Shown here in pieces: positions 913-54,812 of a stretch of 64,000 nt of DNA. The position numbers and the translations under genes were made by a program. The stretch covers positions 16,237 to 80,236 of the forward strand of contig SLJK01000032.1 of assembly GCA_007135125.1 (NCBI GenBank). Direction: 5' to 3'. Every line of letters starts with the position of its first letter. Positions within the stretch are counted from its first letter, which is position 1. The stretch comes from Syntrophomonadaceae bacterium. Lineage in GTDB: Bacteria > Bacillota > Dethiobacteria > DTU022 > UBA8154. Below the pieces are notes generated by a model, which worked only from the letters and a program-made list of their open reading frames with translations, was not told the DNA's origin and did no database searches.

Positions 913-2856
913 ATGGATAAAAACAATCTCTCCTTTCCGTTTTTCGAACAGTCCTCCTCAGAGGACAACTGGTACGGGCAGGATCTGAACAGAGAAACGG
1001 AAAAACATAATAGTCAGTTACTTGCTTCGGGAGAGTCGAGAAGAGAGCTTCTTAAAGAACGTAAAAGGGTGATTCAGTGGAGGATATTAAATGAAGCCAC
1101 TGCCATCTTAAATTCTCAGCTGCACTCGGAAAGCCTTCCCCTTAAATTTATTAAATGTGCAAAGAAATTAGTCTCTGCCGGAGAGGCGCTCTTGGCTTTA
1201 AAAGAAGAAAAAGATGCGAGTCTGACTATTATTAAACATTACTCCACTACCGAGGGTTCTGGGGAAAAGCTGGTTGAAGAAAAATCCCAAAACCCTCAGG
1301 GTGCCATCAAGATTATTATGGAAAACGAAGAAGTTATTAATAGGAACTCATCGCAATTTCCTTCTCATGAACTTTACGGTTTTTATTCCATAAAAAAGAG
1401 TCTTCTGGGGATCCCGATCTATGCAAGCGGGAAAGTTATAGGTGCCCTTTTGATGGCCAACAAATGGGAAGAGGATTCTTTTACCCGTGACGACCAGGAG
1501 CTGCTGCTAATTTTAGGTGCCCAGCTGGGTATAGCCCTGGAAAACTCCAGGCTTTATGAAAAAACTGATGAGAAGCTGCAGGCAAAAGTGGAAGAGTTGG
1601 AACAGGTTAACGACCTTCTGACAAAAAAACATAAAGTGCTGGCTAAATCTTTGGAAATTCACAAGCAGTTAACCGATTTAGCTCTGCGAGGGGAGGGAAT
1701 AGAAGCTATCTGTAACACCCTGGTCTCCATTATTGGTTCACCAATTCAGGTTGAAGATTGTGCCTTTAATATTAAGGCAACGACCATGGAGCACTTAACC
1801 GGGGATTTTCTTAGTGGCAGGAACCTGGTAGATGGTTGTGGATATGAGCGACACTCAAATGAGCTTTTTAAAGGAAGAAAAGCGGTGGAAATTACCCTGG
1901 ATTCTAACACTACTCAATATATGGTCCCTATTATTGCAGGTCAGCAAGTCCTGGGGATCATAACCACGGTTTATGCAGATAGGTCTCTTGGCCAGCTAGA
2001 TAGGGTGGCTATGGAACAGGGAGCAACCATTATTGCCCTGGAAATGCTGAAGGAAAAAGCTGCCGTGGAGCAAACTCGACGCTTGCGGGAACACTTTTTG
2101 GAGCAGGTGCTGGAAAAAGATTATGAAAGCGAAGAGTGGGTGCATCATCGTGCTCTGCAGCTGGGATTTAATTTGAAGCATGCCTGCCAGGTGATGACAG
2201 TGGAGATCGAGCCCGGCCCAAAAGACAGGAGCCGGCCTGAACTATACCAGGAAATAAGGGAGTTCTATATAGACTCTACTACCAATGTTATTGTTATTAT
2301 CAAACATAATAGGGCCATAGTAATGCTCTCTTTCGACCCCCTGGAAGAGAAAGACGGGGTCAAACACCTTGCCGAATTGTTAAAGAAGTGGCTGGAGCAG
2401 TCGGTACAGGACGGCACCTGGTGGATTGCCCTGGGTACTATTTGCTATCAATTAGAAGACTGCGCTATTTCCTACCGAAAGGCAATTACAACTCTTGACA
2501 TTATGAAGGCTTTAAGGCTTACCCAAAAAATAGTTTCCAACGATAACCTGGGGATCTTTTCATTGATCGAAATTAACACCCAAAACTTTGCAGAATTCAC
2601 GCAAAGAACCCTGGGAGAGCTGTTGGATTATGATCAGAAGCATAAAACGCAGCTGGTGAGCACTTTAAACCTGTACTATAGACATAATGCTAATGTCCTG
2701 AAAGCATCCCGCCAGGGCTACCTGAATCCCAGCACCATGAAATACAGGTTGCGGAGAATACAGGAGATCACTGGTTTGGACTTAAAAGATGCCGATGTAG
2801 GCTTGCAGCTGCAGTTTGCTCTGAAATTAATGGAATTTGTTTGGTCAGATAGTTGA
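913..2856 (+). CDS. GAF-domain / PucR (CdaR)-family transcriptional regulator
   Basis: 647 aa. Central GAF-like block (…GIPIYASGKVIGALLMANKWEED…LGIALENSRLYE), a coiled-coil, and a C-terminal PucR-type HTH (…STMKYRLRRIQEITGLDL…). Confidence 0.7.
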   Translation: MDKNNLSFPFFEQSSSEDNWYGQDLNRETEKHNSQLLASGESRRELLKERKRVIQWRILNEATAILNSQLHSESLPLKFIKCAKKLVSAGEALLALKEEKDASLTIIKHYSTTEGSGEKLVEEKSQNPQGAIKIIMENEEVINRNSSQFPSHELYGFYSIKKSLLGIPIYASGKVIGALLMANKWEEDSFTRDDQELLLILGAQLGIALENSRLYEKTDEKLQAKVEELEQVNDLLTKKHKVLAKSLEIHKQLTDLALRGEGIEAICNTLVSIIGSPIQVEDCAFNIKATTMEHLTGDFLSGRNLVDGCGYERHSNELFKGRKAVEITLDSNTTQYMVPIIAGQQVLGIITTVYADRSLGQLDRVAMEQGATIIALEMLKEKAAVEQTRRLREHFLEQVLEKDYESEEWVHHRALQLGFNLKHACQVMTVEIEPGPKDRSRPELYQEIREFYIDSTTNVIVIIKHNRAIVMLSFDPLEEKDGVKHLAELLKKWLEQSVQDGTWWIALGTICYQLEDCAISYRKAITTLDIMKALRLTQKIVSNDNLGIFSLIEINTQNFAEFTQRTLGELLDYDQKHKTQLVSTLNLYYRHNANVLKASRQGYLNPSTMKYRLRRIQEITGLDLKDADVGLQLQFALKLMEFVWSDS

Positions 2857-2936
2857 ACATGTGCTGTGCTTCATTTGGAAGAAGGTAGTTAGAGGTATTA
2901 AGTTGAAATTAAAATATAAAGGAGGCTGTGCAAAAG

Positions 2937-4370
2937 GTGTATAAAGACAACCGAGAATTTATGAAAGCGCTGGAGGCTGCAGGAGAACTGGTTACCATTG
3001 ATCAGGAAGTGGACTGGGACATGGAAGCGGGAGCAATAGTCCGCAAGGTTTGTGAAGACAAGGCACCTTCTCCCCTGATGAACAAAATCAAGGATTACCC
3101 CGGGCATCGATACCTGGGAGCGCCCCTGGCAAACTACCGCAAGTTGGCCATAGCTATGGGCATGGATCCGGATAGCAGTATCCCTGAGATTGCTGCAGAA
3201 TACTTGGAGCGCACCAACAGAGAACCGGTAAAACCTGTTATTGTTGAAAAAGATCAGGCACCTTGCAAGGAAAATATTATTACAGGCGATGATGTTGACC
3301 TTTTTACTCTGCCTGCTCCCATGGTCCATGAAGGTGATGGGGGACGGTACCTGGCAACCTGGCATTTTGTGGTAACCAAGGACCCTGACAAGCAGGAAGT
3401 TAACTGGGGAATGTACAGGCAGATGGTTTATAATTCCAAAATAATGACCGGACCGCTATTTCCTTTTTCCGGTGGTGGCCAGGTTTTCCACGGGAAATAT
3501 GTTCCCCGCGGTGAGGCTATGCCTTTTGCTACTGTGATTGGCCCGGATCCCCTTGGTGCTATTGCGGGTTCCGCCCCCACAGCTATCCCTGAGCCGGAAT
3601 ATACGGGGCAGCTTTTGGGGAAACCTGTGGAACTGGTGAAATGTGAAACAGTGGATTTGGAAGTCCCCGCCAATGCCGAAATAATTATTGAGGGGTATAT
3701 TCTTCCTGATGTATCGATAGAGGAGGGACCTTTCGGTGAGTACACTGGTTACCGTACTTCTCCGAGAGATACTCGCACGGTTTACCAGGTAACTGCCATC
3801 ACCCATAGAAATGATCCCATAACCACCATTTCCAATATGGGTGTTCCCACCGACGAGGGGCAGCTTTTGCGTTCTTTCACCCTGGGTTTGGAAATGGATA
3901 GGATGCTTCGCAACCAGGGTATCCCTATAACGGGAGTGTATATGCTGCCCGAATCGACTCACCACCTGGTTGTAGTTGGAGTTAAGCCGCTTTATACTAA
4001 TATAGCGGCACAAATTGCTCAAACTGTTTTTGGTAGTTCGCTGGGTATGTGGTTCCATATGGTTGTGGTAGTAGATGATAAAACAGATATTTATAATTTC
4101 AACGAAGTTTTGCATGCCCTAAGTACTCGCTGTCATCCTGTAAACGGCATACATGTCTGGCAGGGAGTGGGGACACCCCTCTATCCTTTCCTCAGCGCGG
4201 CGGAAAGGAAGAAATCAGTAGGCCCTAAAGTTCTCTTTGACTGCACCTTCCCGTTGGACTGGGATCCATTAAGCGAGGTGCCCAGACTTGTTTCTTTCAA
4301 GACAGTTTATCCCCAGGAGATCCAGGACAAGGTTCTGGCCAACTGGGAAAAATATGGCTTTACAAAATAG
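2937..4370 (+). CDS. UbiD-family prFMN-dependent (de)carboxylase (phenylphosphate carboxylase alpha/beta-like)
   Basis: The ORF track starts at GTG 2928. GTG 2937 has better AGGAGG spacing and gives MYKDNREF…, typical of a UbiD N-terminus. About 478 aa, with UbiD-like blocks throughout (…GPFGEYTGYR…, …WHFVVTKD…). Confidence 0.8.
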   Translation: MYKDNREFMKALEAAGELVTIDQEVDWDMEAGAIVRKVCEDKAPSPLMNKIKDYPGHRYLGAPLANYRKLAIAMGMDPDSSIPEIAAEYLERTNREPVKPVIVEKDQAPCKENIITGDDVDLFTLPAPMVHEGDGGRYLATWHFVVTKDPDKQEVNWGMYRQMVYNSKIMTGPLFPFSGGGQVFHGKYVPRGEAMPFATVIGPDPLGAIAGSAPTAIPEPEYTGQLLGKPVELVKCETVDLEVPANAEIIIEGYILPDVSIEEGPFGEYTGYRTSPRDTRTVYQVTAITHRNDPITTISNMGVPTDEGQLLRSFTLGLEMDRMLRNQGIPITGVYMLPESTHHLVVVGVKPLYTNIAAQIAQTVFGSSLGMWFHMVVVVDDKTDIYNFNEVLHALSTRCHPVNGIHVWQGVGTPLYPFLSAAERKKSVGPKVLFDCTFPLDWDPLSEVPRLVSFKTVYPQEIQDKVLANWEKYGFTK

Positions 4371-4386
4371 TAAAGGAGGAAATATA

Positions 4387-4641
4387 ATGGCTCGCTATGA
4401 TGTTTTTATAAACAGCTTGGCAGATCTGCCTGAAGGAAAAGAGGTTCAACTTGCGATAAGGGATCTTTCGCCGGGAATTCATAAGTACTGCTATCAGGAT
4501 GTACTGGCCATGGTCTCTCCTGACCCCGAGAAATATGATGAAAAAATGCAGGTTCGTTATGGCAGGGGACAGGCACATCCACAACTATTCTCTATCAAAA
4601 TACAGGAGAATGTTGAAAGGATTCCGGAGCGATGGAGGTAG
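4387..4641 (+). CDS. small (85 aa) protein translationally coupled between two UbiD paralogs (candidate PpcC-like small subunit)
   Basis: The ORF track lists 4288-4641. The plausible start is ATG 4387, directly after the upstream stop and with RBS AAAGGAGGAAATATA. MARYDVFINSLADLPEGKEVQLAIRDL… The 3' end overlaps the next UbiD start by 10 nt. Confidence 0.5.
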   Translation: MARYDVFINSLADLPEGKEVQLAIRDLSPGIHKYCYQDVLAMVSPDPEKYDEKMQVRYGRGQAHPQLFSIKIQENVERIPERWR

Positions 4642-5999
4642 ACTTAAGAAGTTTTCTTCATACTTTAAAAGAAAATAAAGAACTTATAGAACTTGAGGAC
4701 GAAGTCAGCCCCCGTTACGAAGTTACTTCCATTTTCAAAGAGGTGCTGGGGGAGCAGGGAGGTCCGGCTGTCCTTTTGCACAATGTGAGCGGTTATCCCG
4801 GCCGGAAGTTGGCAGGGAACCTTTTGGCCAGCCGTGAAAAGATGGCTTTAGCCCTGGGGTGCCAGGTGGAAGATTTAAGGGACGCATATCTGAAAGGGCG
4901 CTTTGCTTCCCTGGAGCCTGTGCAGGTGCAAGGTAGTGCTCCGGCACAGGAAGAAACAGTGGCAGAAGAGATAGATCTTCTATCTCTTCTGCCCGCACCT
5001 ATTTTTCATCAGGGTGATGCCGGGCCTTACCTTACAGCAGGTGTGCTTTTGGCTAAAGATCCCGATACAGGGGTAATGAACAGTGGAATTCACAGGCTGC
5101 AACTAAAAGGCAAAACTAGGCTGGGGGTGTTTCTGGCTACACCGCCTCTGTCAAATTATTTCAAGAGATCTGAAGAAGAAGGTAAACCCCTGCAGGTGGC
5201 AGTAGCATTAGGTCTGCATCCAGCCGAGCTTTTAGCAGCAGCCGTTTCTCTTAAGGAGGGCATGAAAAGCAAGATTCATCTGGCCGGAGGTTTAGCCGGA
5301 CGAGGAATGCCGCTTACTCCAGCCAAAACCCTGGATATGATGGTGCCAGCCACGGCGGAAATTATCCTAGAGGGACATTTACTTCCTGGTATAAGAGAAG
5401 CAGAAGGACCTTTTGGAGAAAGTACCGGCTATTATTTTGAGGCGGAAAGCCCCATTTTGGAGATACAAGCGGTTACGTTTCGTAAGGATCCCATTCTTAC
5501 CGTTATTCCGCCCTGGGGAATCGAAACGGATATTATACTTGCAGTTTTTAGCGGAGCTGAACTGTGGAAGGAGCTGCACAGGGTTATTCCTGAAGTAAGA
5601 GATGTTACTTTTTTACCGGGCTCCCTCACTTTTCAGGGAGTTATCCAGGTGAGTGAATCACTTTCCAGGGAAAAAATAAGGCAACTGATTTACCTGGCTT
5701 TAAATTTGGATCGACGCCTGAAACACGTGATAGTGGTCGACGATGATGTGGATATTCATAGTTCTAGAGAGGTTTTATGGGCACTGGGGACTCGTTTTCA
5801 GGGCTCTACTGACCTCATTTGCCTCCCGGGCCTGGAAGGGTATGTTATTGATCCTTCCACCCAGGAAGGAGAAACAGCGAAACTTGGTTTTGATGCAACT
5901 GCACGACCGGAGGGGCCATATAGCAAGCGTTACCGGAGTCTTTCCCTTCCCCGGGAATCAATTTTAAAGGCAAAAAACATTCTGGAACAGAGGAGATGA
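4632..5999 (+). CDS. UbiD-family (de)carboxylase paralog
   Basis: 455 aa (MEVDLRSFLHTLKENKELIELEDEV…GPFGESTGYY…). Second complete UbiD paralog. Start overlaps the small ORF and the stop overlaps ubiX (ATGA). Confidence 0.8.
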   Translation: MEVDLRSFLHTLKENKELIELEDEVSPRYEVTSIFKEVLGEQGGPAVLLHNVSGYPGRKLAGNLLASREKMALALGCQVEDLRDAYLKGRFASLEPVQVQGSAPAQEETVAEEIDLLSLLPAPIFHQGDAGPYLTAGVLLAKDPDTGVMNSGIHRLQLKGKTRLGVFLATPPLSNYFKRSEEEGKPLQVAVALGLHPAELLAAAVSLKEGMKSKIHLAGGLAGRGMPLTPAKTLDMMVPATAEIILEGHLLPGIREAEGPFGESTGYYFEAESPILEIQAVTFRKDPILTVIPPWGIETDIILAVFSGAELWKELHRVIPEVRDVTFLPGSLTFQGVIQVSESLSREKIRQLIYLALNLDRRLKHVIVVDDDVDIHSSREVLWALGTRFQGSTDLICLPGLEGYVIDPSTQEGETAKLGFDATARPEGPYSKRYRSLSLPRESILKAKNILEQRR

Positions 6000-6610
6000 T
6001 GCCCGTGCGAATCGTAGTGGGTATATCCGGTGCGACTGGAGTGATCTACGGGATTAGGATCATGGAAATACTCAAGGAGCTTGAAGTGGAAACTCACCTG
6101 ATAATATCCGATGCAGGTAAGAAAAACATTGAGCTGGAAACCGGGTACGAAGTGGCCAGAGTTGAAGCGCTGGCGACAGAAGTTCATGATATATGTAACG
6201 TAGGTGCTTCTATTTCCAGTGGTTCTTTTAAAACCCATGGTATGATTGTTGCTCCCTGTTCTATCAAGAGCCTTTCTGCTATTGCTAATTCTTTCAATAA
6301 TAACCTGCTTATCAGGTCGGCAGATGTTACTTTAAAGGAAAAAAGAAAGCTGGTTATGATAGTAAGGGAGACGCCCTTGCACGTAGGTCATTTGCGGCTT
6401 ATGACAATGGTGGCGGAGGCAGGGGGAGTGCTGCTACCTCCAATGCCTGCTTTTTATAATCACCCTGAAACATTAGAAGATATGATTGACCAGACGGCGG
6501 GAAAAGCTCTGGACCAGTTCGGCATTGAGCATAACCTCTTTAACCGTTGGTACGGTACCGATTCGGCCAGAAGAAGAAACAAAGAAGCTTTAAAAAGGGG
6601 TTTGTTGTAA
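5996..6610 (+). CDS. ubiX: flavin prenyltransferase UbiX (prFMN synthase)
   Basis: 204 aa. IVVGISGATGVIYGIRIMEIL…MIVAPCSIKSLSAIANSF…RETPL is a classic UbiX/Pad1 flavoprotein. The start may be ATG 5999. Confidence 0.85.
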   Translation: MMPVRIVVGISGATGVIYGIRIMEILKELEVETHLIISDAGKKNIELETGYEVARVEALATEVHDICNVGASISSGSFKTHGMIVAPCSIKSLSAIANSFNNNLLIRSADVTLKEKRKLVMIVRETPLHVGHLRLMTMVAEAGGVLLPPMPAFYNHPETLEDMIDQTAGKALDQFGIEHNLFNRWYGTDSARRRNKEALKRGLL

Positions 6611-6614
6611 ACTC

Positions 6615-7139
6615 ATGGAAGAAATTATCGAAAGCAAGGAAATCTTTAACGGAAAAATTATCCGTGTCCGCCTGGATAAAGTAAGACTTCCCGATGGAAA
6701 GGAAAGTCAAAGGGAAATTGTGCAGCTCGGCGGCGCTGTAGCTATGGTGCCAGTTGATGAGAAAGGAAATATTTATTTCGTTAGACAATATAGAAAGCCC
6801 ATTGAAAAAGTTTTACTTGAAATACCGGCAGGGCGACTTGAACCGCCAGAAATTCCTGAGGATTGTGCTCGCCGGGAATTAGCAGAAGAGATCGGTTTGT
6901 GGCCGGATAAAATTAATAAACTTTCAGATTTCTTTTCCTCGCCTGGTTTTTCCAACGAGAATATCACTATATTTTTGGCCAGGAATTTGAGGAAGAGCAA
7001 AATGCGTCCGGATGAAGGAGAGTTTATTGATGTGGTATTATATCCTTTCTCTAAAGCATTAGCCATGATTAGTAGTGGAGAGATTCAGGACGGTAAAACA
7101 ATTGCGGGACTCCTGTTGGCCCATTATTTTCTGCAGTAG
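6615..7139 (+). CDS. NUDIX hydrolase (ADP-ribose pyrophosphatase NudF-like)
   Basis: 174 aa. Nudix box GRLEPPEIPEDCARRELAEEIGL (Gx5Ex7REUxEExGU). Confidence 0.8.
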   Translation: MEEIIESKEIFNGKIIRVRLDKVRLPDGKESQREIVQLGGAVAMVPVDEKGNIYFVRQYRKPIEKVLLEIPAGRLEPPEIPEDCARRELAEEIGLWPDKINKLSDFFSSPGFSNENITIFLARNLRKSKMRPDEGEFIDVVLYPFSKALAMISSGEIQDGKTIAGLLLAHYFLQ

Positions 7140-8600: not shown

Positions 8601-9083
8601 GTGCCAGTGATTATTTTGGAGAGTCACAGTCAGGAACAGACCAGGAAGATAGGGCGTTTTCTGGGTGAGCGCATTCTTTCCGGAACCGTAATTACCTTGA
8701 ATGGCGAGCTGGGTGCAGGCAAAACTGTGCTGGCCAAAGGGGTAGGAGAAGGCCTGGGCATTAAGAAAGCCATTACCAGCCCTTCTTTTGTATTGATGAA
8801 TATCTATCATGGACGATTTAATTTCTATCATTTTGATTTTTACCGCCTGGAGGAAGAAGAAGAATTATGGGAATTAGGGCTGGAAGAATATTTTTATGAT
8901 GAAGGAGTAGTACTGGTGGAGTGGGCAGACAAATTTATAGACAGTCTTCCTGCTACCAGGCTTGATATTTGTATTGAAAAATCTAAAGATAACCTTGAAA
9001 ACGGCCGTATTCTTTATTTTATACCTCAGGGAAAATTTGATTTAACTGTATTGGAGGAGTTGGAAAGCCAGTGTTTTTGTTAG
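8601..9083 (+). CDS. tsaE: tRNA t6A37 biosynthesis ATPase TsaE (YjeE)
   Basis: Walker A GELGAGKTVLAKG, then …FYHFDFYRL…W.LGLEEY…. GTG start (8601 or 8607). Confidence 0.8.
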   Translation: MPVIILESHSQEQTRKIGRFLGERILSGTVITLNGELGAGKTVLAKGVGEGLGIKKAITSPSFVLMNIYHGRFNFYHFDFYRLEEEEELWELGLEEYFYDEGVVLVEWADKFIDSLPATRLDICIEKSKDNLENGRILYFIPQGKFDLTVLEELESQCFC

Positions 9084-9778
9084 CCATTGATACAACTACA
9101 CCAGTTTGCTCTGTGGCTTTAGGAGACGAAGATAAGCTTTGGGGAGAATATACCCTAAATTTAAAAAACACCCATTCTCAAAAGCTAATGCCTCTTCTTG
9201 TGTCTCTCTTTCAGGAAACAAGAATAGATAAAGATATGTTACAGGGCATTGCAGTGACTACCGGCCCGGGGTCTTTTACCGGTATTCGTATAGGAATGGC
9301 CACCGCAATGGGGCTTGCACAGGGATGGGGAAAACCGCTTGTAAGTGTTATGACTCTGGATGCCCTGGCAGAAGTTGGAGCTTACTATCCCATACTTATC
9401 TGTCCGCTGCTTGATGCCCGAAAAGGCCAGGTATATACTGCTCTGTATCGAGGAGAAAAAGGAAGGGCTCGCATGCTTGAACCTGCTTCAGCCTGTTTCG
9501 CCGACGATCTTTTAGTTCATCTGGAATCATATAAAGAAAAGATTCTTTTTCCGGGCGATCCCCTGGAAAGGACCAGGGAAAAATTTAAAGCTTCCCTGGG
9601 AGAAAAGTACCTGGAGTTTCCTTTATTATTATTGTCCAACAGGGCTTCCCTGGTTCTTAAAAAAGGTATACAAAACTGGAAGGAATTGGGCCCGGAATCT
9701 CCATACGCTTTAAGGCCATATTACCTTCGGCTTCCTGAAGCAGAAAGACGTTTCAAGGAGCAAAAGAAAGGGGAGTAG
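9071..9778 (+). CDS. tsaB: tRNA t6A37 biosynthesis protein TsaB (YeaZ)
   Basis: MFLLAIDTTTPVCSVALG…GPGSFTGIRIG… is an inactive Kae1/YgjD-family paralog. Overlaps the tsaE end by 13 nt. Confidence 0.85.
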   Translation: MFLLAIDTTTPVCSVALGDEDKLWGEYTLNLKNTHSQKLMPLLVSLFQETRIDKDMLQGIAVTTGPGSFTGIRIGMATAMGLAQGWGKPLVSVMTLDALAEVGAYYPILICPLLDARKGQVYTALYRGEKGRARMLEPASACFADDLLVHLESYKEKILFPGDPLERTREKFKASLGEKYLEFPLLLLSNRASLVLKKGIQNWKELGPESPYALRPYYLRLPEAERRFKEQKKGE

Positions 9779-9784
9779 CAGTAG

Positions 9785-10228
9785 TTGCAGTTGGTGATCT
9801 GCCAAATGGAAGAGGATGATTTGGAACAGGTTATTCATATTGAGAAGGAGTCTTTCCGATGTCCATGGTCGCTAAGTTCTTTTCAGAGTGAAATGGGCGT
9901 GAACAAGTACTCCTATTATATTGTAGCCAAAAAGAAGGCAGATAATCTGGTAGTCGGATATACAGGAACGTGGATACTTTTTGAAGAAGCTCATATCACA
10001 ACCCTGGCTGTGCATCCAGATTTCCGCCAGAAAGGAATAGCAGCTATTTTGCTGGAGCATTTGTTAAGTAAATTTAGAAACGTGGGGGTCACCTATATAT
10101 TTTTGGAAGTGAGGAGCTCCAATTATTCCGCCCAAAAGCTTTATGAAAAGTATAGTTTTGCCATAGCCGGGAAACGAAAAAGGTACTATGATGATGAGGA
10201 CGCCATTATAATGGTAAAGCATTTTTAG
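9785..10228 (+). CDS. rimI: ribosomal-protein-alanine N-acetyltransferase RimI (GNAT)
   Basis: 147 aa GNAT (…AVHPDFRQKGIAAILLEHL…) in the canonical tsaB-rimI-tsaD position. TTG start with RBS AAAGGGGAG. Confidence 0.8.
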   Translation: MQLVICQMEEDDLEQVIHIEKESFRCPWSLSSFQSEMGVNKYSYYIVAKKKADNLVVGYTGTWILFEEAHITTLAVHPDFRQKGIAAILLEHLLSKFRNVGVTYIFLEVRSSNYSAQKLYEKYSFAIAGKRKRYYDDEDAIIMVKHF

Positions 10229-10244
10229 GAAGAGGTGCTGTTAA

Positions 10245-11267
10245 ATGTTAAGCAAAACTGTTATCCTGGGCCTGGAAACAAGTTGCGATGACACAGCTGC
10301 AGCGGTAGTTGCTAACGGGCGGAATATTTTAAGTAACGTGGTCTCGTCCCAGGACAGTTTGCATCATCGTTTTGGAGGAGTGGTGCCGGAGGTAGCCTCA
10401 AGGCGCCACCTGGAAATTATTAACCCTCTTATAGACGAAGCCATGAGTAAAGCAGGTATTAGCCTCCAGGAAATAGATGGAATAGCGGTATCTTATGGAC
10501 CAGGCCTGGTTGGTTCTCTTCTGGTAGGGGTATCAATAGCTAAAGCTCTATCTTATGCCCTGGATATTCCATTGATACCTGTTAATCACCTGGAAGGACA
10601 TATTTATGCAAATTTTTTAACCGGGTCCATCATTACTTTTCCTCTTGTCTGCCTGGTAGTTTCCGGGGGGCATACTTCACTTCTTTATGTGGAAGGTCAT
10701 GGCAAAATTGAAGTACTTGGAAAGACACGGGATGATGCAGCAGGAGAAGTCTTCGATAAAATTGCCAGGGCTCTGGACCTGGGATTTCCCGGAGGACCAG
10801 TTATCGAGCGTCACGCCCAGCAGGGGGATTCGTCTGTTCTTTCTTTTCCGCGGGCCTTGATGGGAGAAGATGGAAAGATGGATTTTAGTTTCAGCGGAGT
10901 TAAGACTGCTGTATTGAATTACATTCGCATGGAGCAAGAGAAGGGTTCCAGGACAGACATTTATGCCCTCTCCGCTGCTTTTCAGGATGCAGTGGTGGAG
11001 GTGCTGGTGGATAAATCTTTTATGGCTGCCCGGCAAAAGGAGGCCAAACAATTCTTGCTGGCCGGCGGGGTTGCTGCCAACGGTGAGCTTAGAAGAAGAC
11101 TGCGCGTTAAACTGGAAGCGGAAGGGATAGAGGTTGTTGCACCTCCTGTGGAGCTGTGTACCGATAATGGAGCTATGGTTGCTGCTGCCGGGTATTATTA
11201 CCTGAGAAGAGGTATTCGGGCCAATTGGGATTTAAACGCAGTGCCCAGCCTGGAAGTTGGCCAATAA
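10245..11267 (+). CDS. tsaD: tRNA N6-adenosine threonylcarbamoyltransferase TsaD (Gcp/Kae1/YgjD)
   Basis: MLSKTVILGLETSCDDTAAAVV…NHLEGHIYANFL…VSGGHTS…GVAANGELR is the universal Kae1/TsaD signature. Confidence 0.9.
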   Translation: MLSKTVILGLETSCDDTAAAVVANGRNILSNVVSSQDSLHHRFGGVVPEVASRRHLEIINPLIDEAMSKAGISLQEIDGIAVSYGPGLVGSLLVGVSIAKALSYALDIPLIPVNHLEGHIYANFLTGSIITFPLVCLVVSGGHTSLLYVEGHGKIEVLGKTRDDAAGEVFDKIARALDLGFPGGPVIERHAQQGDSSVLSFPRALMGEDGKMDFSFSGVKTAVLNYIRMEQEKGSRTDIYALSAAFQDAVVEVLVDKSFMAARQKEAKQFLLAGGVAANGELRRRLRVKLEAEGIEVVAPPVELCTDNGAMVAAAGYYYLRRGIRANWDLNAVPSLEVGQ

Positions 11268-11296
11268 TATTTTTTTATGTTACCTGATGTAAAAAC

Positions 11297-11381
11297 TGTG
11301 GATAGAATACTTAGAGGCGCTTAAAATGAGGGTTTTTCTGTGGATAAACCTGTGGATACTGTGAATACTTTTTGTGGAAAA
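11297..11381 (+). promoter_or_regulatory. cluster of four co-oriented DnaA boxes (TGTGGATAA-type)
   Basis: TGTGGATAg (11297-11305), TGTGGATAA (11339-11347, perfect reverse complement of TTATCCACA), TGTGGATAc (11351-11359) and TGTGGAaAA (11373-11381). Confidence 0.5.
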
Positions 11382-11561
11382 TAGTTGTCTCGTGTTGAAA
11401 CATATTATAGGCAGGGATAATATCAGCTTCAGTAATGTGACATAATTCTTTTTTTGTTAGTTGCGGAACGTACCCTCAGGGTGCCGGTATTTTTGCTATA
11501 ATTATTTATGACAACCGGTGGCGCAGTATTTATCTTAGTGTTACGAAAGGAAGGAGATTGT

Positions 11562-12965
11562 TTGCTGCATACTTTTCAGACGGTTCATTTCATAGGTATC
11601 GGTGGCTACGGAATGAGTGCCCTTGCTTATATCTTACTTCGCTCTGGATATGTGGTGCAGGGTTCTGATATAAAGATGTCTACACTGGTTAAGTCTCTGG
11701 AAAATTCAGGAGCAAAGATCTTTAGAGGTCATAGCCCGGCCCATATAGACGGTGCAGATCTTGTAGTTTATTCCACTGCTATTCCTGCAGATAACTCTGA
11801 ACTGGCTGCTGCCAGGGGAAAGAGCCTTACGGTTTGGCATCGATCAGAACTTTTAGCTGCTTTGCTGAATACAGGTTGTGGAATAGCGGTCGCTGGTGCC
11901 CACGGAAAAACTACAACTTCTGCTATGCTCTCCTTGATTTTGGAAAAAGGAGGGTTAGATCCTACCGCTCTTGTTGGCGGCGAAGTGCCTTCTTTTAATG
12001 GGAATGCGCGTTTAGGGAGCAGTAATATTATTGTAGCGGAGGCATGTGAAAGCGATCATTCTTTTTTACGATATAAGCCTTATCTGGCGTTGATAACTAA
12101 CATTGAAGCTGACCACCTGGAACATTATGAAGGTAATTTTCAATATCTTTTGGAAGGTTACCGGCAATTTATTAATAATGTTAAAAGAGAGGGTACTCTT
12201 ATTTATTGTGGTGATGATCCTTTTTTAATGGAGATGCAGGCATTATTGCCCCCTAACTCCCTTTCGTACGGTCTGTCTCAAAGTGTAGATTTTAGAGGAG
12301 AGCTGTTGGAGTTGCAAGAAATGGGTTCACGCTTCGCTGTTTCTTGCAAGGGCGAACATAAAGGAAATCTGGTTTTGAATATACCAGGTTCTCATAATGT
12401 TCTTAACGCTCTTGGGGCTGCAGCAGCAGCCTTTGTTCTCGGTGTGGACTTCAAAGCTGTACAGGAGGCGCTGTATACTTTTACAGGTGCGCGAAGAAGG
12501 TTTGAAAAAATTGGTGAAGAAAATGATATCCTGGTAATAGACGATTATGCCCATCATTCCACAGAAGTCAGGGTTACCCTGGAAGCTGCGAGACGCAGCG
12601 GCAGAAGAGTGATCTGCGTTTTTCAACCGCATCGTTATACGCGTACCAGCTTTCTATGGAATGAGTTTGTCGAAGCTTTTAATGATGCTGATATACTTAT
12701 GCTGTCGGAGATCTACGGTGCAGGCGAAGAACCTCTGGAAGGGGTTAACTCCGGTGAGCTCGGCCTGCAGATCAGCGAAAGAACGCAGAAAAACGTTTAT
12801 GTGGCGAAGACAGGTGAAGAGCTGCTGCAGCGCCTCATAAAGGTTGCTGTGAAAGGAGATATTGTTTTAACAATGGGCGCAGGAGATATCTGGCAGGTTG
12901 GTAGGAATTATTACCAGTATTTGCTAAGAAATAGCAGTATTCATGCCATGGAGGACCAGGGTTAA
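11562..12965 (+). CDS. murC: UDP-N-acetylmuramate--L-alanine ligase
   Basis: HFIGIGGYGMSALA, …AGAHGKTTTSAML… and a Mur ligase C-domain. The ORF opens at 11508. In-frame TTG 11562 with AAGGAG 6 nt upstream is the likely start (about 467 aa). Confidence 0.8.
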   Translation: MLHTFQTVHFIGIGGYGMSALAYILLRSGYVVQGSDIKMSTLVKSLENSGAKIFRGHSPAHIDGADLVVYSTAIPADNSELAAARGKSLTVWHRSELLAALLNTGCGIAVAGAHGKTTTSAMLSLILEKGGLDPTALVGGEVPSFNGNARLGSSNIIVAEACESDHSFLRYKPYLALITNIEADHLEHYEGNFQYLLEGYRQFINNVKREGTLIYCGDDPFLMEMQALLPPNSLSYGLSQSVDFRGELLELQEMGSRFAVSCKGEHKGNLVLNIPGSHNVLNALGAAAAAFVLGVDFKAVQEALYTFTGARRRFEKIGEENDILVIDDYAHHSTEVRVTLEAARRSGRRVICVFQPHRYTRTSFLWNEFVEAFNDADILMLSEIYGAGEEPLEGVNSGELGLQISERTQKNVYVAKTGEELLQRLIKVAVKGDIVLTMGAGDIWQVGRNYYQYLLRNSSIHAMEDQG

Positions 12966-50123: not shown

Positions 50124-50303
50124 ATGGAAAGGTTTATAGATCCTTGCTGTAAGGAATGTTTTAATAGCAAAGATAATCGCTGCGACCAGTTTGTTGAATG
50201 CTGTCTAACAGGACCCCTTTGCCATGATAGCGAAGAATGTGCGGCAAAGAGAAGGGCCATAGTCGAAAAACTTGCTCATAGTCCGGGCTACCTGGAGCAA
50301 TAA
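50124..50303 (+). CDS. hypothetical Cys-rich 59-aa protein (8 Cys) between nuoE- and nuoF-like genes (not in ORF track)
   Basis: MERFIDPCCKECFNSKDNRCDQFVECCLTGPLCHDSEECAAKRRAIVEKLAHSPGYLEQ*. Strong RBS AAGGGGAGGG 6 nt upstream. It ends 28 nt before the GTG start of the NuoF-like gene. Confidence 0.3.
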   Translation: MERFIDPCCKECFNSKDNRCDQFVECCLTGPLCHDSEECAAKRRAIVEKLAHSPGYLEQ

Positions 50304-50331
50304 TCCAAGGCAGGTGGAAGGAGGGAAACAA

Positions 50332-52116
50332 GTGTACGAAAAACAAATTTTAATCTGTGCCGGGACAGGATGTATATCTTCCGGTGCCTACGAGGTCAAA
50401 GAAGCGCTGGATAATGAGCTGCAAAAGAATAATATGGAAGACAAAGTGCGTGTTATTCTTTCGGGATGTCACGGGTTTTGTGAAAAAGGTCCCCTGCTTA
50501 TCGTCTATCCGGAAGATATTTTCTATTGTGAAGTTACCGGGGAGGATATGCCTGAACTGGTAGAACAACATTTGGTTAATGGCAACATAGTGGAAAGGCT
50601 GCTTTATAAAGATCCCAATACGGAGCAAATTGTCAGCAATCACGAAGAGATTCTTTTTTACAGCAAGCAAAAAAGATTGGTGCTGCGCAACTGTGGGGTT
50701 ATAGATCCGGAGAATATTGACGAATATATCATTCGCGGCGGGTATCAAGGACTGAAAAATGCCCTGGATAAGGATCCTTCAGAGGTGGTGGAGATGATAA
50801 AAAACTCTGGCCTCAGGGGGCGCGGTGGGGCAGGCTTCCCCGCCGGCATGAAGTGGGAATTTGCTTATCGCAGCCAGGGCGATAAAAAGTATGTGGTCTG
50901 TAATGCTGACGAAGGTGATCCCGGAGCTTTTATGGACCGCAGTACGCTGGAAGGTGACCCCCATGCAGTACTGGAGGGCATTATGATTGCCGGTAAGGCC
51001 ATTGGTAGTGATGAGGCTTATATTTACGTTCGGGCCGAGTATCCGCTGGCTATTAAGCGCTTAAGAACTGCCATTGCCCAGGCAGAGGAATATGGGCTTA
51101 TTGGGGAAAATATTTTGAATAGCGGTTTCAACTACAAGGTTAATATAAAAGAGGGAGCCGGAGCCTTCGTTTGTGGGGAAGAAACGGCTCTATTAGCTTC
51201 CATTGAGGGAGAACGCGGGATGCCACGTCCCCGTCCCCCTTTTCCAGCTGTAAAGGGACTTTGGGGTAAACCTACCTGTATTAATAATGTCGAAACCCTG
51301 GCCAACGTGCCTCTCATTATGCGCAAAGGAGTGAAATGGTTTACTTCTGTCGGCACCGAAGGAAGCAAGGGAACTAAAATTTTTGCTCTCACCGGTAAGG
51401 TTAACAATACCGGGCTTTGTGAGGTGCCCATGGGTATAACGTTGCGTGAAGTTGTCTTTGATATTGGCGGAGGTATCCGCGGGGGCAAGAAATACAAGGC
51501 TGTTCAGATAGGTGGTCCTTCAGGAGGTTGTATACCGGAGTCACTTTTGGATCTGCCTATTGATTTTGATTCTCTTACCCAGGCAGGAGCTATGATGGGT
51601 TCTGGTGGCCTGGTGGCCATGGACGAGGAAACCTGTATGGTAGATCTTGCCCGATATTTCCTATCTTTTACCCAAAATGAATCTTGCGGTAAATGCACTC
51701 CGTGCCGTGAAGGCACCAAGCGCATGCTGGAGATTTTAGAGCGTATTACTGAGGGAAAAGGGGAGGCTGAAGATATCTCTCGCCTCGAGAAAATCGCTGT
51801 AACTGTTAAAGACAGTTCTCTTTGTGGATTGGGACAGACGGCGCCAAATCCTATACTTACCACGCTGAGGTATTTCCGGGATGAATACGAAGCACATATC
51901 TATGACCGCAGATGTCCGGCCGGGATGTGCAAGGAACTGCTCAGTTACTATATAGACCCAGAAATCTGTAACGGGTGCCGTGCCTGTACCAAGGTCTGCC
52001 CCGTTGAGGCTATAACGGGCGAAAAAAAGGAACCTCACGTAATTGATGAGGAAAAATGTATTGCGTGCGGTGCCTGCCTGGATCGTTGTAAATTTGGAGC
52101 TGTAAAGACAAAGTAA
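50332..52116 (+). CDS. NuoF/FdsB-like NAD(H)-binding FMN/Fe-S subunit with N-terminal 2Fe-2S domain and C-terminal 2x[4Fe-4S]
   Basis: GTG 50332 with AGGAGGG RBS; the track opens at 50272. …GRGGAGFPAGMKWEF… (NADH/FMN site), …ESCGKCTPCREG… (N3 cluster), C-terminal CNGCRAC…CIACGAC. Confidence 0.85.
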   Translation: MYEKQILICAGTGCISSGAYEVKEALDNELQKNNMEDKVRVILSGCHGFCEKGPLLIVYPEDIFYCEVTGEDMPELVEQHLVNGNIVERLLYKDPNTEQIVSNHEEILFYSKQKRLVLRNCGVIDPENIDEYIIRGGYQGLKNALDKDPSEVVEMIKNSGLRGRGGAGFPAGMKWEFAYRSQGDKKYVVCNADEGDPGAFMDRSTLEGDPHAVLEGIMIAGKAIGSDEAYIYVRAEYPLAIKRLRTAIAQAEEYGLIGENILNSGFNYKVNIKEGAGAFVCGEETALLASIEGERGMPRPRPPFPAVKGLWGKPTCINNVETLANVPLIMRKGVKWFTSVGTEGSKGTKIFALTGKVNNTGLCEVPMGITLREVVFDIGGGIRGGKKYKAVQIGGPSGGCIPESLLDLPIDFDSLTQAGAMMGSGGLVAMDEETCMVDLARYFLSFTQNESCGKCTPCREGTKRMLEILERITEGKGEAEDISRLEKIAVTVKDSSLCGLGQTAPNPILTTLRYFRDEYEAHIYDRRCPAGMCKELLSYYIDPEICNGCRACTKVCPVEAITGEKKEPHVIDEEKCIACGACLDRCKFGAVKTK

Positions 52117-52136: not shown

Positions 52137-54812
52137 ATGCTTTCATTAACAATAAATGGTCATGAAGTAAAAGTGGAACCGGGTAGTACCATCCTGCAGG
52201 CAGCTGAAAAGCTGGGTATATTTATACCGACTTTTTGTTATGATCCGCAGCTTGCCCAGGTGGGTGCTTGTCGTATCTGCGTAGTAGAAGTGGAGAAGGC
52301 CCGTGCTTTGGTGGCTTCTTGTTGCACTCCTGCTGCAGATGGCATGATTGTGCATACGGATAGCGAGCGTGTTTTAGCTGCCCGCCAGGCTAACTTGAGC
52401 CTGCTGTTGGCCAATCACCCCCTGGACTGTCTTACCTGTGAAAAAACTGGCGAGTGTAAGCTGCAGGATTACTGTTACCTCTACGGGGTAGACGAAAGTG
52501 ATTTTGTCGGTGCGCAGAAAGACTATGATCTGGATGATACCAATCCTTTTTATATAAGGGACATGAATAAGTGCATCCTGTGCGGTCTCTGTGTGCGTAT
52601 CTGTTATGATGTTAATGGAGCTGGTGCTATTGAATTTATAAACAGGGGTTTTGACTCTAAGGTTACTCCTGCTTTTGACGATCCGATGGAGTATTCTTCC
52701 TGTGTTTTTTGCGGAATGTGTGTGGATTCCTGTCCTGTAGGTGCTCTTATTCCGAAGGAGAGTATTCGACAGGCCCGTCCCTGGGAACTGAAAAGCGTAA
52801 AAACCATCTGTCCGTACTGTGGCACCGGTTGTGGTTTAGAGCTTTTGGTAAAAGACAACAAAGTAGTTAAGGTTAGGGGAGATTTATCTAATCCTGTTAG
52901 CCGGGGACAGACCTGTGTTAAAGGTCATTTCGGGATCGATTTTCTGGACAGTCCGGACCGTTTAAAGACACCCCTGGTTAAAAAGAACGGTGAATTTAGG
53001 GAGACTACCTGGGAGGATGCCTTGGAGCTGGTAGCTGCCAAACTCAAGGAGGTAAAGCCCACAGAAGTGGCAGGCTTGGCGTCGGCAAGGGCTACCAATG
53101 AAGAAAACTATCTTTTCCAGAAGCTTATCCGGTCACTAGGCAGTAATAGTGTAGACCATTGTGCCCGGCTTTGACATGCACCTACTGTAGCCGGTCTGGC
53201 TACATCTTTTGGCAGCGGTGCTATGACCAACAGTATTAGTGAGATAGAAGATGCTCAAGCGCTTTTTGTCATTGGCTCGAATACTACCGAGACCCATCCC
53301 GTTATCGGTTACAGGATTAAGATGGCAAAAAATAAAGGTGCTTCACTTATCGTAGCCGATCCCAGGCATATTGATTTAGCCGACTATGCTGATGTTTTTT
53401 TGCAGATGCGCCCGGGAACCGACGGGGCACTTCTTAACGGACTATTGAACGTAATTGTAGACGAAAGTCTGATTGACAAGGCTTTTATCGAGAAGAGAAC
53501 AGAGGGTTTCGAGGAGTTAGTGGCAGCTGTTAAAAAGTATACTCCAGAATACGTGGAAGGGATTACGGGCGTGCCTGCCGCTGATATTCGCAAGGCTGCA
53601 AGGTTATATGGCACTGCGGAAAATGCTGCTATCTGTTATACCATGGGTATTACCCAGCATGTGGAAGGGACAAATAATGTGTTGGCTATAGCTAACCTGG
53701 CCATGGCCTCAGGTAACCTGGGCAAACCTCACAGCGGTGTGAATCCTTTAAGGGGACAGAATAATGTCCAGGGGGCCTGTGACATGGGAGCGTTACCTAA
53801 TGTTTTTACCGGTTATCAGCGGGTTGATATGGATGCCCAACGAGAGAAATTTGAGAAGGCTTGGGGAGTCGCTCTTAACTCAACTCCCGGCTATACTGTA
53901 ACCGAGGTTATGGATGCTGTTTTGGATGGGAAGGTTAAATTTATGTATGTTATGGGCGAAAATCCTTCTCTAAGCGATCCTAACCTTCATCATGTGGACG
54001 AAGCTCTGACTGAGGTAGATTTTTTAGTAGTCCAGGATATTTTCTTGACAGAGACAGCACAAAAAGCCGACGTGGTATTACCGGCAGCTGCTTTTGCCGA
54101 AAAAGAAGGCACTTTTGTAAATACTGAACGGCGTGTACAGCTTATCCGCCAGGCGGTTACAGCTCCAGGAGAAGCCAAACCTGACTGGGTAATTCTGACG
54201 GAATTGGCCCAAAGACTTGGATTGCCCTGGAAATATGAAAGCGCAGAAGATGTCTTCCGTGAAATAACGGATCTGACCCCCAGTTATGCCGGGATTAGTT
54301 ATCAGCGCCTGGAAAATGAAGGTGGGCTGCAGTGGCCCTGTCCGGAAGAGGGACACCCCGGTACATCCATCTTGCACAAGGATGTTTTTGCAAAAGGTAA
54401 GGGTGTATTTACGCCGGTAGAGTATTCTCCACCGGCAGAAGAACCATGCCAGGAGTACCCCCTTATTCTCACTACGGGGAGGGACCTTTACCATTATCAC
54501 ACTGGTTCTATGACCAGACAAAGCAAAGGACTTGCCGCGTTCAGGCCGATGGAGAAAGCCCAGGTAAATCCTGAAGATGCGAAAGCATTGGGGCTGGAGG
54601 AAGGTGACGCTATCAAGATTACTTCCAGAAGAGGAGAAGTAACGGCCAGATCTACTATAACAGAAATTGTACCTCCTGGTGTGGTTTTCATGACTTTTCA
54701 CTTTCATGAATCTGCGGTAAACCTTTTAACCTGCTGCGAAGCGATAGATCCCGTGGCCAAGATTCCCGAGCTTAAAACATGTGCTATCAAACTGGAAAAA
54801 GCAGCTTTGTAA
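52137..54812 (+). CDS. fdhA: formate dehydrogenase catalytic subunit, molybdo/tungstopterin, selenocysteine-containing (in-frame UGA at 53172-53174)
   Basis: Track ORFs 52137-53174 and 53223-54812 are in the same frame and bridged by …VDHCARL-U-HAPTVAGLA… This is the canonical Sec position of formate dehydrogenase. The N-terminus has 2Fe-2S and 4Fe-4S motifs; the C-terminus has MopB domains. Confidence 0.85.
53176..53221 (+). promoter_or_regulatory. SECIS-like hairpin immediately 3' of the Sec UGA
   Basis: TGTAGCC-GGTCT-GGCTACA (7-bp stem, GGUCU apical loop), nested in outer GCACC…GGTGC pairing. It begins 12 nt after the UGA. Confidence 0.5.

Follow-up and report, generated by a model that had tools for sequence, protein, structure and literature searches.

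A probable DnaA assembly site 3' of tsaD in a Dethiobacteria genome, positional counterpart of the Bacillus subtilis gcp-ydiF cluster

We analysed a 64,000-nucleotide stretch of DNA from a Syntrophomonadaceae bacterium of the class Dethiobacteria (assembly GCA_007135125.1, contig SLJK01000032.1; hereafter the window, numbered from its first nucleotide), in which an array of five DnaA boxes occupies positions 11297-11381, between tsaD, a gene of N6-threonylcarbamoyladenosine (t6A) synthesis, and murC. This array is probably a high-affinity non-origin DnaA assembly site, a DnaA-box cluster (DBC), and the positional ortholog of Bacillus subtilis DBC[gcp-ydiF], gcp being the B. subtilis name of tsaD. 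The kind of element is thus already known, from B. subtilis. Its boxes are enriched beyond chance, are under purifying selection, recur beside tsaD across Bacillota and are spaced in phase with the DNA helix.

All five boxes are co-oriented, with the consensus TTATCCACA on the minus strand, and the array (85 bp) begins 30 bp past the tsaD stop codon. As read on the plus strand, box 1 (11297-11305) is TGTGGATAG, an 8/9 match, and is separated by a 33-bp spacer (11306-11338) from box 2 (11339-11347; TGTGGATAA), a perfect 9/9 match. Box 3 (11351-11359; TGTGGATAC, 8/9) comes 12 bp after box 2, measured from start to start, and is abutted by box 4 (11360-11368; TGTGAATAC, 7/9), and box 5 (11373-11381; TGTGGAAAA, 8/9) closes the array. 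A first-pass annotation of this DNA had reported four co-oriented boxes in these 85 bp, one perfect and three 8/9; our box scan of the window recovered all four, and box 4 is a fifth that was absent from that annotation. Some 290 bp before the cluster, at 11006-11014, the coding sequence of tsaD contains an additional co-oriented 8/9 box, GGTGGATAA.

Counting boxes with at most one mismatch, the window holds 21, against a shuffle mean of 15.6, and 4 of the 21 fall inside the array; elsewhere in the window there is never more than one such box per 100 bp. In 300 simulated windows drawn from a first-order Markov model of the window, the maximum per 100 bp was one box in 215 cases, two in 84 and three in a single case. 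A Poisson estimate, taking 17 background boxes in 64 kb and hence 0.023 expected per 85 bp, puts the probability of four or more at about 1e-8 per position and about 7e-4 per window, before any requirement of co-orientation. The local enrichment on which the first-pass annotation had staked its reading holds up within the 64-kb window, where this is the sole cluster and none of the 300 simulations reaches four boxes. With four boxes of at most one mismatch in 85 bp of intergenic DNA, the array exceeds what chance would give.

The B. subtilis counterpart has been studied directly. By chromatin affinity precipitation on chip (ChAP-chip), Ishikawa et al. (2007) showed that DnaA stably binds eight intergenic regions, gcp-ydiF among them, and already reported that the gcp-ydiF cluster is conserved within Bacillaceae (PMC2533591). 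Smith and Grossman (2015) assigned ten sites to it, with a Kd of 0.15 uM for ATP-DnaA and binding that at 55 nM favours ATP- over ADP-DnaA 16-fold (PMC4447404). We read the B. subtilis locus directly and found the gene order tsaE-tsaB-rimI-tsaD and, in the 225-bp region after tsaD, three reverse boxes beside the stop codon followed by five forward boxes that include an abutting pair and a 41-bp step; a terminator hairpin shared with ydiF comes after the cluster. In the window, the t6A operon (8601..11267, plus strand) has the same order, matching ydiB-ydiC-ydiD-gcp of B. subtilis, and the cluster lies at its 3' end. It consists of tsaE (8601-9083; Pfam TsaE), tsaB (9071-9778; a TsaD-family match in Pfam), rimI (9785-10228; Pfam GNAT, a RimI-type acetyltransferase) and tsaD (10245-11267; PF00814, E = 7e-97).

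The two clusters therefore share their place, directly 3' of tsaD in a tsaE-tsaB-rimI-tsaD operon, and much of their build: multiple boxes with at most one mismatch, mostly oriented as tsaD, abutting 9-bp box pairs, a phased step of 41-43 bp and, in most lineages, a position away from any promoter. They differ in that B. subtilis has 8-10 sites, three of them in the opposite orientation, and a convergent ydiF, whereas the window has five co-oriented boxes, a murC gene in the same direction and a flanking repeat; position, box content and phasing are shared, but the exact order of boxes is not. The proposal of the first-pass annotation that this is the counterpart of the Bacillus gcp-ydiF cluster is well founded, because operon and cluster position are equal in the window and in B. 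subtilis and because many intermediate Bacillota lineages carry a cluster at the same place.

To map this linkage, TsaD relatives were sought in one genome per species, yielding 80 loci, and a locus was scored positive when it had at least three boxes within 700 bp 3' of tsaD, with pairs (two or more boxes) counted separately. Of the 24 Bacillota loci, 13 have such a cluster (16 when pairs are included), and all 51 non-Bacillota loci lack one (Fisher p = 2e-8); substituting the actinobacterial consensus TTGTCCACA left the result the same. No other box cluster was found in the 676 kb of DNA flanking the examined tsaD loci. The carriers include metagenome-assembled genomes (MAGs) of Dethiobacteria, Syntrophomonadaceae and Peptococcaceae as well as Alkaliphilus, Carboxydocellales, Tepidanaerobacteraceae, Thermosediminibacter, Thermovorax, Syntrophomonas zehnderi, Desulfovirgula and a 70%-GC Bacillota MAG; further carriers are Anoxybacter fermentans (Halanaerobiales), Desulfohalotomaculum tongense and six Dethiobacteria-type loci. 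Retention of the cluster beside tsaD thus extends over Dethiobacteria, Bacilli and several orders of Clostridia (Halanaerobiales, Thermosediminibacterales, Eubacteriales and others). In the complete 3.56-Mb genome of A. fermentans (CP016379.1, record 84788-91801), the cluster (locus L085) is found about 89 kb into the record, followed by a DUF512 gene and then groES-groEL, and would be origin-proximal if the record begins at dnaA.

What follows the cluster changes from lineage to lineage. The downstream gene is murC in the window's clade and elsewhere a paaK-like (phenylacetate-CoA-ligase-like) gene, a DUF512 radical-SAM gene, a subtilase gene or an acetyltransferase-like open reading frame (ORF); other lineages have a bioY-like gene and then the ABC-F gene ydiF, convergent as in B. 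subtilis, or 5-formyl-THF cyclo-ligase-like and lgt-like ORFs (the last two named by eye from translations). In Thermosediminibacter, Thermovorax and a Tepidanaerobacteraceae MAG (L010, L013 and L019), the t6A genes are split and rimI-tsaB-tsaE converge on tsaD. Because the downstream gene changes in this way, the cluster belongs with tsaD and not with murC.

The boxes themselves are conserved more strongly than the DNA around them. The nearest genomes are Dethiobacteria MAGs whose TsaD is 73-95% identical to that of the window. A footprint alignment of eight relatives (TsaD 69-83% identical) gave mean pairwise identities of 0.88, 0.94, 0.88 and 0.82 for boxes 1 to 4, as against 0.46 in the 33-bp spacer, 0.40 in the 3-bp gap and 0.29 in the sequence past box 5. 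Box 5 reaches only 0.57, and its position drifts by 1-3 bp among relatives, and box 4 is TGTGGATTA, an 8/9 match, in three loci (L086, L087 and L002). The 33-bp spacer is conserved in length but not in sequence. The boxes are thus under purifying selection, and the expectation of the first-pass annotation that orthologous intergenic regions should retain them is borne out, both by the eight aligned relatives, which keep boxes 1-4, and by the clusters at the Bacillota loci counted above.

Conserved spacing goes together with conserved boxes. Boxes 1 and 2 are 42 bp apart from start to start, which is four helical turns, and a step of 40-43 bp recurs in 10 of 12 representative lineages, including B. 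subtilis (41 bp). Across these 12 lineages, the distances between adjacent co-oriented boxes were 9 bp (8 times), 12 bp (4 times), 20-22 bp (7 times) and 40-43 bp (9 times), and 16 of the 25 box gaps of at least 15 bp correspond to two or four helical turns. A Rayleigh test at a period of 10.5 bp gave R = 0.575 and p ~3e-4, a value that is somewhat optimistic because the sampled lineages are related. The layout of the window (box, 42 bp, box, 12 bp, box, 9 bp, box) is nearly identical in Thermosediminibacter, Thermovorax and the Tepidanaerobacteraceae MAG, where TsaD is only about 53-54% identical, and a second layout, TGTGGATAATGTGGATAA and TGTTAATAA separated by 3 bp, recurs at seven loci (L003, L004, L006, L020, L025, L039 and L219). 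In most lineages, the boxes share the orientation of tsaD.

From this arrangement and from B. subtilis we infer that DnaA binds the array in this organism, how the oligomer is built and that the complex has a buffering role. The strong boxes would anchor ATP-DnaA; boxes 2-5 would form a head-to-tail array with a step of 9-13 bp, and box 1, four helical turns upstream, would present its site on the same face of the DNA. Close spacing and helical phasing would favour cooperative oligomerisation of DnaA into a stable nucleoprotein complex, which would keep a share of ATP-DnaA, and in Bacillus also DnaA-associated factors, away from oriC. The cluster would then belong to a redundant set of several buffers of initiation potential; it would be passed on together with the 3' end of tsaD, as one unit, rather than with murC, and would work in either orientation. 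In B. subtilis, and only there, experiments have established DnaA binding in vivo and in vitro and early initiation when all six clusters are deleted (PMC2533591, PMC4447404, PMC3245932).

Several points weigh against this reading, the relatedness behind the spacing statistic being one of them. DnaA binding in this organism is a prediction from the sequence. The distribution is patchy, the cluster being missing from 8-11 of the 24 Bacillota loci and from one further locus (L220). Pure titration is weakly supported even in B. subtilis, because deletion of gcp-ydiF alone left the ori/ter ratio at 0.99 of wild type, and because gcp-ydiF alone, re-inserted into the strain lacking all six clusters, gave 1.35 against 1.37 for the six-fold deletion, that is, no rescue (Okumura 2012, PMC3245932); a 2026 review cites only this six-fold deletion on the function of the clusters (PMC13220808). 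Of the suggestion in the first-pass annotation that the site is a conserved DnaA sink, the conserved position across Bacillota stands, while the sink function is not established. Finally, a generic sink need not adjoin tsaD, so that the strict linkage hints at a function in cis beyond the buffer model.

Such a function could take the form of a DnaA roadblock or insulator at the 3' end of the tsaD operon, or of a DnaA site that is reset by read-through from tsaD, an explanation that we regard as unlikely but worth setting against the data. The cluster has remained beside tsaD while its downstream context changed, with at least nine different ones seen, and its boxes are mostly oriented as tsaD is. 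In the window and six other loci (L085, L010, L013, L019, L025 and L219), it starts 0-30 bp past the stop codon with no intervening terminator hairpin seen by eye, and in B. subtilis the hairpin comes after the cluster. The boxes of L013 (4996-5101) occupy the whole ~104-bp gap between convergent tsaD and rimI, and no terminator hairpin was seen by eye in the tsaD-rimI gap of L010, L013 or L019. At E. coli datA, read-through from the adjacent tRNA operon is a reported precedent (PMC10950094). Against this, at five loci (L003, L005, L006, L008 and L020) the stretch from tsaD to the boxes seems by eye to contain a terminator-like hairpin or small ORF, the orientation of the boxes is not fixed, and tiling arrays in B. 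subtilis were unable to resolve effects on gcp and ydiF owing to their weak expression (PMC2533591).

There is a modest chance that the cluster is an ancient cis-element, as old as Bacillota, with a function specific to the t6A operon instead of a generic sink. It might then act as a transcription-gated DnaA reservoir, in which read-through from a growth-rate-dependent tsaEBD operon would strip and reload DnaA, a Bacillota analogue of the datA/tRNA circuit; in the reverse option, DnaA bound at the 3' end would tune the output of tsaD. If so, the conserved 42-bp phased layout would represent a defined higher-order DnaA complex. A link between DnaA and t6A is suggestive, given that DnaA in B. 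subtilis targets and directly represses ywlC (tsaC), the other dedicated t6A gene (PMC2533591, PMC10221552). Of the six regions outside the origin that DnaA binds in B. subtilis, two are neighbours of genes required for t6A37 in tRNA, ywlC (tsaC) and gcp (tsaD) (PMC2533591, PMC10221552). A third adjoins trmE/gidA, also involved in tRNA modification, and we found no paper discussing the connection.

The other gene beside the cluster, murC, was the target of a second proposal of the first-pass annotation, DnaA-dependent regulation of the downstream gene. DnaA at the boxes would activate or repress one or more murC promoters and so tie the synthesis of cell-wall precursors to replication status. 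This gene, of the UDP-N-acetylmuramate-L-alanine ligase family (11562..12965, plus strand; Pfam Mur_ligase, Mur_ligase_M and Mur_ligase_C), starts at TTG 11562, as placed by the ribosome-binding site GGAAGGAG (11549-11556), by homology and by gene calls in relatives; the longest ORF opens in frame at ATG 11508. With this start, the intergenic region is 294 bp long (11268-11561) and not 240 bp as first given. Between boxes and murC lie two extended -10-like elements that are conserved in relatives. The first, TGaCATAAT (11438-11446), is directed at murC and is a putative promoter element. The second, TGcTATAAT (11494-11502, plus strand), directly follows a terminator-like hairpin with its T-run (11470-11484, plus strand), and TGnTATAAT-like elements stand at the matching place in relatives; hairpin and -10-like element could be the terminator of the tsaD operon followed by a murC promoter.

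These elements, the retention of the tsaD-boxes-murC arrangement in all nine Dethiobacteria-type loci, and the fact that DnaA is a transcription factor at B. subtilis clusters such as sda, ywlC and yydA (PMC2533591) all speak for a murC operator. However, some 60 bp separate the last box from the nearest -10-like element, and outside the clade the tsaD-linked cluster precedes unrelated or convergent genes, lying in B. subtilis between two 3' ends, which was judged uncharacteristic of transcriptional regulation (PMC2533591). Moreover, the box module is inverted in two murC-linked taxa that keep the arrangement. With the downstream gene so variable and often convergent, murC regulation cannot be the conserved function, and we consider the operator explanation doubtful; regulation of murC may be a local add-on of this clade, though we would give that a rather small chance.

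The inverted taxa point to a further feature of the Dethiobacteria form. A clade-specific inverted repeat flanks the module, with a 9-bp left arm at 11275-11283 (TTATGTTAC) and a right arm at 11437-11446 (GTGACATAA, plus strand) that overlaps the TGaCATAAT element. In all nine Dethiobacteria-type loci, arms of the pattern TTATGTnAC (window 11275-11283) and GTnACATAA (window 11437-11445) bracket the boxes, always 159-163 bp apart, and the left arm has a mean pairwise identity of 0.90, against 0.45 in the adjacent bases. The flanking repeat was not found in the other lineages that bear the cluster. At two loci, L088 and L089, the whole interior between the arms is inverted while tsaD and murC keep their orientation. 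Because the tsaD strand still has a positive GC skew there, the module is flipped relative to both tsaD and the direction of the fork, which rules out a fixed orientation of the module relative to replication. These inversions show that either orientation of the box module is functional or at least tolerated.

The same observations raise the possibility of a programmed invertible switch, in which a segment of ~170 bp would be flipped by site-specific recombination between the repeats, altering local regulation. The fixed distance between the arms at nine of nine loci fits such a switch, as does the occurrence of both orientations in taxa that are not grouped in a neighbor-joining (NJ) tree of five concatenated proteins. 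However, bootstrap support in that tree is only 20-61%, too weak to require more than one inversion; the tree is compatible with a single one, and one or two accidental repeat-mediated inversions account for the data. There is also no sign of active switching, because one reversed species, represented by eight contigs from as many samples, has an identical intergenic region in a single orientation throughout; assemblies show the majority state only, and minor subpopulations may exist. Like fimS-like elements, the module has flanking inverted repeats; both orientations within one species were not seen among these contigs, and no recombinase domain was found among the ~48 window ORFs scanned against Pfam. 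With the repeat missing in other lineages that carry the cluster, we regard a programmed switch as very unlikely. The repeat-flanked module of Dethiobacteria may nevertheless be able to flip.

It is extremely improbable that the array is a chance similarity or an element of another kind, such as a small ORF, an RNA element or a set of sites for some DNA-binding protein other than DnaA. Such explanations draw on the fact that DnaA binding here is predicted, but they are opposed by the box enrichment statistics, by conservation that is specific to the boxes and by the position, which corresponds to a proven DnaA site in B. subtilis. The intergenic region has no Rfam match at the gathering score, a search at E <= 5 giving only a meaningless scaRNA match, and its fold z of 0.13 indicates no excess folding. 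Its ORFs are only 20-30 aa long and have no ribosome-binding sites. A 61-aa gene annotated across the boxes in some relatives is an artefact of the gene caller, because contigs with this annotation and contigs lacking it have the same DNA. A promoter candidate in the 33-bp spacer of the window (TGGATA-17-TAAAAT) is unconserved in relatives.

Neither is the array an origin of replication, although its box consensus is that of oriC arrays and its boxes are, like theirs, co-oriented and close together. The window ORFs scanned against Pfam included no dnaA or dnaN, and no DnaA-trio array or AT-rich unwinding element was seen by eye after the boxes. The GC skew keeps its sign, being positive on the plus strand over the whole window and on both sides of the cluster, so that tsaD is probably on the leading strand and no origin is nearby. 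Among the listed matches of TGTGGATAANNNTGTGGATA to metagenome contigs (at least 120), 18 adjoin dnaA and none tsaD; this sample is tiny, not restricted to Bacillota and uninformative on specificity for tsaD.

E. coli datA, a non-origin cluster of DnaA boxes that lowers initiation potential, is a possible functional parallel. datA acts through IHF-dependent stimulation of DnaA-ATP hydrolysis and has no sequence or positional homology with the tsaD cluster, which is not known to have an IHF-type site or such a hydrolysis activity. datA reportedly also lies immediately 3' of a translation-related transcription unit and is affected by read-through from that unit (PMC10950094). B. subtilis lacks both IHF and datA (PMC13220808). 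The DnaA-regulated promoters of B. subtilis (dnaA, sda, ywlC and yydA) resemble the tsaD cluster in having DnaA-bound clusters of the same boxes. They differ in that their boxes overlap or adjoin the regulated promoter, whereas the tsaD cluster lies at a 3' end, its downstream gene is inconstant, and no conserved association with the promoter of any one gene was found.

What appears to be new is the breadth of the cluster beyond Bacillaceae, its independence from the downstream gene, the recurrent phased spacing and the repeat-flanked, invertible form of Dethiobacteria. In the literature searched, from which subscription-only papers were excluded, no paper joins tsaD with a DnaA box and none extends the gcp cluster past Bacillaceae. 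Among the B. subtilis clusters, gcp-ydiF is the odd one, sitting at two 3' ends; the comparative data argue for selection on the site and on its linkage to tsaD, and they supply variants of spacing, orientation and linkage. In annotating the window, 11297-11381 would best be entered as a predicted DnaA-binding site of a known kind, neither an origin nor primarily a murC operator.

Other features of this DNA and its relatives deserve brief mention. In the closest GTDB genome, a Dethiobacteria MAG (L001), murC is seemingly split at 5377-6774 into ORFs of 183 and 161 aa, possibly by a frameshift or an assembly error. Upstream of the t6A operon, at 913-6610 of the window, a gene for a PucR/GAF-type regulator precedes two genes for UbiD-family decarboxylases and one for a UbiX-like flavoprotein; together they are probably a cluster for aromatic-acid decarboxylation. 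At 52137-54812, nothing but TGA 53172-53174 (context ...HCARL*HAPTVAGL...) stands between two same-frame ORFs whose molybdopterin domains are of the formate-dehydrogenase type. The two ORFs adjoin Fe-S genes, including a NuoF-like one (50272-52116), and most likely constitute one predicted alpha subunit of a selenocysteine-containing formate dehydrogenase.

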